From: a virus
Taxonomy: Monodnaviria; Loebvirae; Hofneiviricota; Faserviricetes; Tubulavirales
Reading direction: 5' to 3' (one strand)
Virus record (IMG/VR): IMGVR_UViG_2617270961_000002
Length of the DNA stretch: 8,932 nucleotides
The notes below the pieces were generated by a model. It made no database searches. It was not told the origin of the DNA and worked only from the letters and a program-made list of their open reading frames with translations. The translations under genes were made by a program, and so were the position numbers. Position 1 is the first letter of the stretch. Every line of letters begins with the position of its first letter. This document shows positions 2,063 through 8,932 of the stretch, piece by piece.

Positions 2063-3633
<1,571 letters not shown>

Positions 3634-3635
3634 TG

Positions 3636-5030
3636 TTACCCCCTGTCAACAAAAAGAACACGACGAACAATAAAGTAACAACGTAAAGTCGTTAATGCAT
3701 AAAGAGCATACTCCAGTAAAGGTCTGATAATGTCATCATAAGCTGAAGCAAAATCAGATGTGTCAATTGTAAAATACAGCCCATTTATCCCCGGCAATGG
3801 AAATTCAATCTGAACTGGCTGAGCACCAGAACGACGCAGTTCACCAGTTAAAAGTAATTTATCAAAATTAATATAAAGCCACTCATCAGGAAGAAGACTG
3901 AAAAGCCTGTCAGCAAATGAAGACATATCATCCTGTTCAGGCGTTACAGAATGAATTAATTCATTTAACTGTGAATCATAAGAACTAACCGCACTGGTAA
4001 TATCATCCTGAGAAACAGAAAAAGTATTATTTAAATCATTCACTGAACCCCATATTGTTTTTAACCAGCCCAAAATACCATCAAGCCAGCCATTGTCATC
4101 GCCGGATGAGCCACCGGAGCCTGAACCTGAACTACCGCTACCGGATGAACCACCGGAGCCAGAACCTGAACCACCACTGCCGGATGAGCCGCCGGAACCC
4201 GAGCCGGAGCCACCGCTACCGGATGAACCACCGGAGCCAGAACCTGAACCACCACTGCCGGATGAGCCGCCAGAACCCGAGCCGGAGCCACCGCTACCGG
4301 ATGAACCACCGGAGCCAGAACCTGAACCACCACTGCCGGATGAACCGCCAGAGCCTGTCGTATTATCGCAATTGTCGTCGTCACAACCAGAGCCACTCCC
4401 TGTATTGCCGTCAGGATTTTTATTGGCGGGAGCCACGCCAACAGAACGCATACTTTGAGCGATACAATTCCCGTCGTCATCACACTCGTTAAAATCAATC
4501 AAATAACGACAGCCATTAATTTCCAGGGACTGAGATTCCTGCCCGTTACCCGTATCAACCCAGACAACATCACCAAGAGAATATGAAAAGTCCTTAATTA
4601 CCGGACGGGAAAGACAATTTTCTTCGGTAACCGGCTTATTATATTCAGGTGTCAAATCCCCCTCACCACCCTGAAAAGCAAGGGTGCAGGCTGTCCACTT
4701 TTGCTTGTCTGAATCCCAGACTTTATATGCTGACCACCGGGCACGGACAAAAGACCCGACAGTCGAAGGTGCATTAACAGGCGTGGAAAGTGGCACACCA
4801 CAATAATGAATTATTCCGGAACATGCGTCATAATTGCCCGAACCACAGAAAAGATGACCGGCCGCCCTGGCTAATTTAATCGACGTCCCCGCGTCCGAAT
4901 AATCTGTCCTGCAGGATGAATGGCCTGCACACTGAACAAGTGCATCCGGATTTTCTTTCTCTTCAGCGAAAGAAAACGAGGAAAAGAACAAAAACAGAAG
5001 CGGAATAATAAAGTGAATCAAAAAAAACAC
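3636..5030 (-). CDS. Adsorption / minor coat protein, pIII-like, with Gly/Ser-rich linker
   Basis: 464 aa; hydrophobic N-terminal leader; Cys-rich N-terminal region; long (GGSSGSGGSGSGS)n linker; hydrophobic C-terminus. The track start at 5030 is GTG overlapping the AGGAG Shine-Dalgarno sequence, so the true start may be a few codons downstream (for example TTG at 5021). Confidence 0.8.
   Translation of the reverse strand: MFFLIHFIIPLLFLFFSSFSFAEEKENPDALVQCAGHSSCRTDYSDAGTSIKLARAAGHLFCGSGNYDACSGIIHYCGVPLSTPVNAPSTVGSFVRARWSAYKVWDSDKQKWTACTLAFQGGEGDLTPEYNKPVTEENCLSRPVIKDFSYSLGDVVWVDTGNGQESQSLEINGCRYLIDFNECDDDGNCIAQSMRSVGVAPANKNPDGNTGSGSGCDDDNCDNTTGSGGSSGSGGSGSGSGGSSGSGGSGSGSGGSSGSGGSGSGSGGSSGSGGSGSGSGGSSGSGGSGSGSGGSSGSGSSGSGSGGSSGDDNGWLDGILGWLKTIWGSVNDLNNTFSVSQDDITSAVSSYDSQLNELIHSVTPEQDDMSSFADRLFSLLPDEWLYINFDKLLLTGELRRSGAQPVQIEFPLPGINGLYFTIDTSDFASAYDDIIRPLLEYALYALTTLRCYFIVRRVLFVDRG
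4102..4358. repeat. Intragenic 39-bp tandem repeats (about 6.6 copies, alternating two sub-variants as a 78-bp higher-order unit) encoding the pIII Gly/Ser linker
   Basis: CCGGATGA(A/G)CC(A/G)CCGGA... recurs at 4102, 4141, 4180, 4219, 4258, 4297 and 4336; it creates the periodic PLPDEPPEPEPEP and Arg/His-rich artefact ORFs in other frames. Confidence 0.9.
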
Positions 5031-6112: not shown

Positions 6113-8360
<2,248 letters not shown>

Positions 8361-8494
8361 GTTTGCACCGCAATATATTTACCGCATGCGTGCATCATAA
8401 TCACATTTAACACGTATTGTAAATACGCATGCGCTATGCGGGTGTAAAAAAAATGGAATAATCACCTTCTATTGAAAGGACATAGAGGTAAATT
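8361..8494. promoter_or_regulatory. Divergent intergenic control region (likely promoters/operators for the replication operon and the divergent regulator; possibly the plus-strand origin)
   Basis: 134-bp non-coding gap between divergent starts; two copies of the self-complementary octamer CGCATGCG (8383-8390 and 8426-8433); inverted repeat CGTATT-gta-AATACG (8413-8427); A-run and AT-rich tract upstream of the plus-strand gene. Confidence 0.5.
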
Positions 8495-8710
8495 TTGATG
8501 AAAAAAGAAACAAAGCGCGGAGACACAACCGTAAGGATTAACGAAAACAGAAAACTGGAGCTAAAACGAAGAGTGCTGGAAATCGGTAATAAAACAGGTG
8601 AGCTACTAAAACCATCAGAGATAGTAAACCACTTAATAGACAACTACTTAGATGATGCGGTGAAAGATCTAATAAGCAAAGAAGAACTTAAGAAAAAAAA
8701 GGCAATGTGA
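8495..8710 (+). CDS. Small DNA-binding regulator, ribbon-helix-helix-like; candidate phage repressor
   Basis: 71 aa; GAGG Shine-Dalgarno sequence 9 nt upstream; predicted beta-strand (TTVRINEN) followed by two helices (RKLELKRRVLEIG / SEIVNHLIDNYLDD) in an RHH-like arrangement; basic C-terminus; divergent from the replication genes, as rstR is in CTXphi. Confidence 0.5.
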   Translation: MMKKETKRGDTTVRINENRKLELKRRVLEIGNKTGELLKPSEIVNHLIDNYLDDAVKDLISKEELKKKKAM

Positions 8711-8773
8711 TCCCTTTCCCAACGTCAAAAAAACAGGCCAAGAAAGATCAAAGGAACAGTTAAACGAGGCAAT

Positions 8774-8929
8774 ATGCAGATAACCAGTGACTTAATCCTT
8801 GACCTGCTGATAAAGCATTTTGTTGTGGGCAGCATCACAGGCATGACAATATTCAGCCTGATAACGCTTGTCCTACCGTTGGTGATGACCATACACAACA
8901 AACTAAGTAAGGACACTGAAATCCTTTAA
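8774..8929 (+). CDS. Hypothetical small membrane protein (51 aa)
   Basis: ATG at 8774 with GAGG 4 nt upstream; hydrophobic core FVVGSITGMTIFSLITLVLPLVMTI flanked by charged residues; same strand and same reading frame as the upstream regulator gene. Below the ORF-track length cutoff; an overlapping minus-strand ORF (8725-8916) is an equally weak alternative. Confidence 0.3.
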   Translation: MQITSDLILDLLIKHFVVGSITGMTIFSLITLVLPLVMTIHNKLSKDTEIL

Positions 8930-8932
8930 GGT

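Follow-up and report, generated by a model that had tools for sequence, protein, structure and literature searches.

The window analysed here is the 8,932-nucleotide (nt) stretch of DNA held as IMG/VR virus record IMGVR_UViG_2617270961_000002, which is a complete or near-complete filamentous (inovirus) prophage of Escherichia coli. We focused on the intergenic control region at 8361-8494 and on the genes that diverge from it. A first-pass annotation had proposed that a 71-residue ribbon-helix-helix (RHH)-like regulator faces the Rep operon across paired palindromes 43 bp apart and a CGTATT/AATACG inverted repeat, in the manner of the rstR-rstA region of CTXphi. The divergent layout was found as described, except that Rep is the second leftward gene. 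The operon opens with an open reading frame (ORF) of 81 amino acids (aa) at 8115-8360 on the minus strand, which ends 1 nt ahead of the Rep start codon. Rep itself (6113-8113, minus strand) is a replication endonuclease of the Phage_GPA family (Pfam PF05840, E = 7e-49; phrog_91, 'nicking at origin'). The small rightward gene (8498-8710, plus strand) encodes an RstR-like regulator that most likely starts at ATG 8498, as in annotated homologues, and is 70 aa long; starting at the TTG at 8495 would give the 71-aa product. In the ORF map, this gene is divergent from the replication-initiator operon and lies beside the dif-type attachment end of the prophage.

Results

The regulator matched phrog_2503 (E = 1.5e-27), a family annotated 'unknown function'. 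Among 1.84 billion cluster representatives, profile searching recovered only 81 clusters, nearly all of 50-100 aa, and homologues were found in Salmonella, E. albertii, Gilliamella, Providencia, Xenorhabdus, Arsenophonus and Photorhabdus. When phage records were searched with tblastn, residues 6-61 of the regulator were 67.9-69.6% identical to rstR of GQ466611, GQ466608, KR063268 and GU942563, and the RstR-like gene of the V. anguillarum phages VAI1/VAI2 fell in the same range. The GQ466611 gene (strain IB1617) is annotated 'environmental RstR; cryptic phage CTXphi transcriptional repressor' and KR063268 is the pre-CTX rstR; the annotated RstR or RstR-like matches cover CTXphi, pre-CTX, RS1env, VAI1 and VAI2. 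The V. cholerae gene is annotated at 86 aa, with homology beginning at an internal ATG that would give 64 aa. Hence, what had been noted as a likeness to rstR-rstA is homology at 68-70% identity, and the pre-CTX intergenic region carries the same conserved blocks as the window.

The family appears to include rstR-6 as well, to judge from primer-encoded termini. The rstR-6 primers encode MKKKYTSLRVS and ...DLKR (PMC11509585 Table S2), which match family members P0060, P0088 and P0102. RstR-6 represses its own ig-2 promoter allele-specifically in a luciferase reporter, and the repression and immunity assays of that study are for other rstR alleles only (PMC11509585). Judged from primers and lengths, the regulator is not homologous to the helix-turn-helix (HTH)-type ET, classical and 232 alleles (PMC11509585 Table S2).

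We located the paired palindromes at 8383-8390 and 8426-8433, 43 bp apart start to start. Both are CGCATGCG, which includes an SphI site and has no other copies in the 8,932 bp (0.20 expected; at least two copies in 5 of 200 shuffles). A consensus scan placed a leftward promoter between them, scoring 10/12, with a -35 of TTTACA at 8418-8423 and a -10 of TATGAT at 8394-8399 (both minus strand) separated by an 18-bp spacer. Given these scan positions, the first octamer, proposed operator O1, lies 3 bp downstream of the -10 and spans the predicted start near 8387, and the second, proposed operator O2, lies 2 bp upstream of the -35. Reading the sequence directly, we propose an extended -10, TGgAATAAT, at 8454-8462 on the plus strand as part of the regulator's own promoter, whose -35 region would overlap O2. 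The consensus scan missed this rightward -10 because there is no good -35, and relatives have a -10-like hexamer (TAAAAT, TATGAT or TATGCT) at the matching distance from O2.

To compare these sites across genera, we aligned the intergenic regions of eight loci from six genera whose regulators are of the DTTVRINE class: the window, E24377A, Xenorhabdus, Arsenophonus, V. splendidus, Photobacterium, pre-CTX and VAI2. Three spots stayed conserved while their flanks diverged. The first block is ATATTTAYYGCATGCRYRCAT followed by the minus-strand -10, for which a -10-like hexamer was present at the same place in 8/8 aligned relatives; O1 falls within this block, where the consensus is approximately TTTAYYGCATGCRYRCAT (8 loci, E. 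coli to Vibrio). The second is TGTAAATA, containing the minus-strand -35 (TGTAAA/TGTAAC, nearly invariant), and then CGCATGCG or a GCATGC core ~7 bp further out. Around O2, the block TGTAAATACGCATGCG is kept in E. coli, Xenorhabdus, Arsenophonus and V. splendidus. The third is the rightward -10-like hexamer. Scanning IMG/VR for the 15-mer that joins the -35 to O2 returned 20 loci, and all ten of inovirus size have the regulator directly downstream; the remaining ten are isolated chance matches.

Homologues with a different N-terminal strand carried a different repeated site in the same place, mostly paired at 36-60 bp. Among E. coli prophages, strain 600029 (locus L003; strand KSIGISNE) has two copies of TGCAATTGTGCA 52 bp apart, E100341 (L001; KAIAITES) has TGTTAACA-type sites ~60 bp apart, and TD225-C4 (L022; KSYNVPNE) has TCATGATG as an inverted pair at 36 bp. 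The strand DTTIAING goes with TTACATGTAA at 44 bp in Thalassotalea (L009) and with two copies of TACATGTAAACA at 52 bp in Pseudoalteromonas (L010), the first of which holds the TTACATGTAA core. Pectobacterium (L011; RTTMAIVAE) pairs TATGCATGCATA with CATGCATG at 44 bp, and Methylobacter (L018) has two copies of CTGCTAACAA at 41 bp. No clear repeated pair was seen in L012 and L017, both Xenorhabdus loci with a regulator of the RTTMAIVAE class, and the loci of the other E. coli types (14-19 kb) were without CGCATGCG.

Comparison with sister prophages, which the first-pass annotation had recommended as a way to reveal immunity-type variation, did reveal it. The TD225-C4 prophage has 7900-8348 and 8636-8932 in common with the window at 92-94% identity, and 8349-8635 between these blastn breakpoints is replaced. 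This hypervariable putative immunity segment comprises the entire intergenic region together with the opening 12 nt of the 81-aa ORF and regulator codons 1-46; the TD225-C4 replacement brings both its own repeats and its own strand. Strain 600029 agrees with the window up to 8128 and from 8769, with 8129-8768 replaced. In all, at least four types occur on one E. coli backbone (those of E100341, 600029, TD225-C4 and the window). The otherwise unrelated E24377A-type prophage (L002), which has a Rep_trans Rep, has a cassette at 8317-8720 in common with the window at 98% identity. More broadly, this regulator class and its sites precede three unrelated Reps: Phage_GPA in the window, Rep_trans in E24377A, pre-CTX and V. 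splendidus, and Phage_CRI/G2P in Xenorhabdus. Since the exchanged unit consists of the putative operators and what would be the DNA-reading part of the regulator, it bears the classic signature of a heteroimmunity region.

The mosaic breakpoints and the recurrence of the cassette beside three Rep families also uphold the earlier suggestion of a separately acquired module, though not the boundary near 8440 that had been drawn from AT-richness. Breakpoints place the module from ~8317/8349 to 8635/8720. Positions 8440-8932 are indeed AT-rich, with a guanine-plus-cytosine (GC) fraction of 0.381 compared with 0.490 for the whole window (Rep, 0.543; 8361-8494, 0.366). However, 3277-4100 has a comparably low GC fraction (0.368) and the fall in GC starts near 8115, so composition does not define the module.

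Nine E. coli copies of the cassette (404 bp) differed at 12 variable positions in all, whereas the octamers, -10, -35 and 213-bp regulator coding sequence were identical in every copy. The stretch 8411-8416, which lies in the promoter spacer and over the CGTATT arm, accounts for five of the variable positions. The CGTATT/AATACG repeat is present (8413-8418 and 8422-8427), but this polymorphism means that a hairpin there is not a conserved element. Moreover, at least one 6-bp inverted repeat occurred in 46% of simulated regions, and the repeat is broken in the 98%-identical E24377A copy. We therefore rejected the hairpin as a functional element, being at chance level and not conserved.

The same spacer contains a degenerate third box, CACGTAT, at 8411-8417, which overlaps the CGTATT arm. 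Here, TGCAT(G) is found in relatives from Vibrio, Arsenophonus and locus L028, and TGCGTGT in some E. coli variants. The variants observed at 8411-8416 were ACACGTAT, ACACGTGT, ATGTGTGT, ATGCGTGT and ATGCGCGT, some of which restore an operator-like half-site, ATGCG(T/C)G. The box may be a tunable third subsite or third operator, or it may tune the promoter.

We then considered the fold of the regulator. An AlphaFold2 (AF2) monomer model, with a predicted local distance difference test (pLDDT) score of 73, had residues 1-15 extended and helices at 16-33, 39-46 and 51-69. Fold searches with this monomer were uninformative, as expected if the N-terminal strand pairs only in a dimer. The family profile A3 (74 sequences) aligned to the RHH domain of ParG (1p94) with hhalign probabilities of 78% and 88% and scores of 30-31, in a register that pairs regulator residues 7-53 with ParG 33/34-74 and so spans the whole RHH domain. 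The ParG sequence used was checked to be identical to 1p94, and 40 shuffled ParG controls gave at most 1.1% and a maximum score of 12.8. Eight of the 74 family members matched Pfam ParG below threshold (best E 0.019), and one family member matches the PutA RHH domain. Arc (12.3) and Mnt (9.4) stayed within the noise set by the shuffled maximum, as did lambda Cro and ubiquitin. Searching the PDB with profiles A1 to A3 gave sub-threshold matches only (ParG at E ~0.6), and no HTH family in Pfam matched even at E up to 10. We therefore regard the regulator as probably RHH-like, as had been proposed, although this falls short of proof.

Other regulator-like genes were observed at related loci. At 11506-12217 of the E100341 locus, three small regulator-like genes stand in a row. 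The first, unannotated and 60 aa long, adjoins its own TGTTAACA repeats; a window-regulator homologue comes second and a 62-aa ORF third. The second is 87.6% identical in nt sequence over window positions 8470-8752, yet the 16-kb locus has no CGCATGCG. The N-terminus of the third, MPTKHINDV, resembles the MATKHIKD encoded by an rstR-calc primer. The extra genes may be stacked 'orphan' immunity genes. Some E. coli strains, such as JNE070796 and AST240, contain two inoviruses, one with the window backbone and a different cassette at ~0.93 Mb and one of E24377A type with the window cassette at ~1.75-1.8 Mb, which fits co-residence of heteroimmune phages. The non-integrating coliphage If1 (U02303) has an unannotated 63-67-aa homologue of the MATPKRTTMAIVAERK class in its 'major intergenic region' (1471-1674 of locus L023), adjoining an ORF at 962-1405 that is IS200/IS605 tnpA-like by eye only.

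The rest of the window has the gene content of a filamentous phage. The pIV secretin (68-1276), Zot/pI (2063-3274), pVI, pIII (3636-5030), pVIII and a G5P-like protein are all encoded on the minus strand. The 81-aa ORF had no phage match by tblastn and no family in Pfam or NCBIfam, and its fold showed weak HicB-N-like similarity and no more. A 51-aa hydrophobic ORF (8774-8929, plus strand) is kept in all sister prophages directly ahead of a dif-like site, AGTGCGCACAATGACGTTATGTATAA. This site, seen at 11696-11730 of the 600029 locus, follows directly past the end of the window, which stops exactly at the junction. Near-identical prophages sit between ydeT and hipBA in the E. coli terminus, often in tandem. 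Megablast of the window against the phage collection gave no match, and an Rfam scan of the window at E up to 1 gave no RNA family.

Two tandem repeats lie elsewhere in the window. The gap between pIV and Zot/pI contains a 339-bp unit repeated 2.2 times at 95% match (1315-2049); the sister prophage of E100341 is without this repeat, its gap measuring 112 bp. Within each unit, a stretch of about 100 bp matches more than 5000 small ColE1-like mobilizable plasmids at 80-85% identity, and by eye we take the unit to be like the primosome-assembly-site region of pBR322/ColE1. It could be a PriA-dependent complementary-strand origin. The second is a 39/78-bp tandem repeat at 4101-4355 as read on the plus strand, which on the minus strand falls inside the pIII gene, the product of which contains a Gly/Ser-rich linker, (GSGGSSGSGGSGS)n. 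Its copy number probably differs among strains.

Discussion

We interpret 8349-8710 as the immunity (lysogeny-control) cassette carried by a filamentous E. coli prophage integrated at dif, in which a heteroimmune repressor and its operators would control the replication promoter, homologous to the rstR/ig-2/PrstA unit of the CTXphi family. We put the probability of this interpretation, which draws on sequence comparison, at roughly three in four. Under the proposed mechanism, the 70-aa protein would be a small repressor with a ParG-like RHH domain, and its dimer would insert the N-terminal strand (residues ~8-15, DTTVRINE) into the GCATGC-containing sites. As 43 bp is about four helical turns, repressors on O1 and O2 would flank the RNA polymerase site on one face of the DNA, covering the transcription start at one end of the promoter and its upstream edge at the other. 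The conserved C-terminal helix could support higher-order assembly between O1 and O2. Silencing of the operon of the 81-aa ORF and Rep, with Rep the presumed main target, would block replication of the phage and likewise superinfection by others of its type. The position of O2 over the -35 region of the regulator's own promoter would allow autoregulation. Specificity would reside in the operators and the first ~46 codons, which are swapped together to give heteroimmune types.

Several results count against this interpretation. The promoter scan was not enriched relative to shuffles, and a repeated 8-bp palindrome appeared in ~1% of simulated 134-bp regions (first-order Markov), making the octamer repeat by itself only a ~1% event. 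The alignment blurs the exact recognised unit, since pre-CTX, VAI2 and Photobacterium have their GCATGC core displaced ~7 bp outward from the -35, and Xenorhabdus and Arsenophonus have a degenerate O1 (CCATGCACACATG). The regulator had no match at threshold in Pfam or NCBIfam, and our literature search found no binding or reporter data for its protein class, environmental RstR included. No LexA box (CTGT-N8-ACAG, at most one mismatch) was found in the control region.

The strongest competing explanation is that the regulator binds these sites in a role other than maintenance repressor, whether activation, lytic regulation of the Cro kind, or centromere binding or partition as by ParG. ParG, its best structural relative, acts both in partition and as an autorepressor, activation is possible from where O2 lies, just upstream of the -10 of the regulator gene, and the 81-aa ORF might be the real counter-regulator. 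We consider such roles unlikely. The window has no gene for a ParA/ParF-type partner, both gene position and homology match rstR, the CTXphi repressor, and O1, lying over the predicted start of the Rep operon, is placed to repress. Repression of its own promoter is shown for RstR-6 (PMC11509585), which the termini encoded by its primers appear to place in the family.

It is much less probable that the octamers are replication-origin repeats, serving as Rep binding or nick sites, rather than operators. Inovirus origins are intergenic and often contain palindromes, and the octamers do lie near the Rep operon. However, the same sites occur at the same spacing before Phage_GPA, Rep_trans and Phage_CRI/G2P initiators, which rules out an origin function specific to one Rep. 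The sites also covary with the class of regulator and not with Rep, and sister phages whose Rep 5' ends are ~90% identical carry wholly different repeats. In CTXphi, the plus-strand origin reportedly lies in ig-1 and not in ig-2. Least probable of all is that the palindromes arose by chance or composition, or serve a host factor: despite the simulation and shuffling frequencies given above, they are conserved across genera amid diverging flanks, invariant in nine cassette copies and tied to the regulator class, which lies directly downstream in 10 of the 20 IMG/VR 15-mer matches.

The interpretation as a repressor-operator cassette places the window system in the rstR/ig-2 immunity type of CTXphi on the grounds of homology (PMC11509585). 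With the environmental allele (RS1env, CTXenv and pre-CTXphi; GQ466611 and KR063268), it shares a small repressor gene divergent from the replication operon, and the pre-CTX intergenic layout is like that of the window, the -10 being accompanied by a GCATGCGCGCAT site and the -35 by TGTAAATA...CGCATGCG. In both, a hypervariable unit of allele and operators lies between conserved flanks, the arrangement of heteroimmunity (PMC11509585). The window differs in its E. coli host and in its Rep, which is of Phage_GPA type behind an extra 81-aa ORF rather than RstA (Rep_trans). CTXphi-ET additionally has an SOS (LexA) input at its rep promoter, an accessory feature for which the window control region has no LexA box.

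Resemblance to other systems is looser. The regulator shares the helix-B motif (D/E)(I/V)VN.L(I/V)DN(Y/W)L with ParG of plasmid TP228 (PDB 1p94), a centromere-binding RHH protein that is also an autorepressor and binds short repeated boxes in arrays. In contrast, the window has neither a ParF partner nor a partition locus, its putative operators are two separated sites flanking a promoter rather than a tandem array, an extra C-terminal helix (51-69) is predicted, and the match is below the Pfam threshold. Arc and Mnt of the phage P22 immI region are likewise small phage RHH repressors on divergent promoters, as in our model, but the phage type differs and their hhalign scores were at noise level.

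By position and description rather than sequence, the regulator can be likened to YPO2273 of the Yersinia pestis Ypfphi and CUS-1 prophages, called an 'RstR homologue' and located at the rstR position of an enterobacterial dif-integrating inovirus (PMC4266046). Partial superinfection immunity is reported, and the regulatory role of YPO2273 is putative (PMC4266046). FpsR of Shewanella phage SW1 is a repressor divergent from an operon for replication and structural genes, whose rep promoter has several operators within and near it (PMC8569181), and Pf4r/XisF4 of Pseudomonas Pf4 is reported to have a similar switch layout (PMC8402870). These two are compared here by layout and not by sequence, and they differ from the window in operator numbers and partner proteins.

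The feature is real but largely expected, and its new content is modest: the probable RHH assignment, defined putative operators, the spread of one specificity across genera, and orphan repressor genes. We advance a broader proposal tentatively, rating it somewhat short of an even bet. The short rstR alleles (environmental, and probably types 6 and calc) would form an unrecognised family of ParG-like RHH repressors apart from the HTH protein RstR-ET, which is reportedly unrelated and ~112 aa long. One specificity, the DTTVRINE strand with GCATGC operators, would span V. cholerae CTXphi, pre-CTX and RS1env and the prophages of E. coli, Xenorhabdus and Arsenophonus, on a portable cassette placed before three unrelated Rep families. 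Some prophages, such as that of E100341, would add orphan repressors without cognate operators, possibly excluding heterotypic phages through stacked cross-immunity. Our literature search found no paper linking RstR with the RHH fold.

These results provide a base-level map of the putative switch in dif-integrated filamentous prophages, which are common in diarrhoeagenic and extra-intestinal E. coli and whose regulators are still annotated 'hypothetical'. Such a map could be used to type E. coli inovirus immunity by 8349-8635, to predict prophage co-residence and superinfection, and as a source of small orthogonal repressor-operator pairs. The analysis also suggests an RHH fold for the products of the short rstR alleles, with operators that are short and of GCATGC type, and it ties these E. 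coli prophages to CTXphi rstR immunity, which decides which cholera-toxin phages share one cell.
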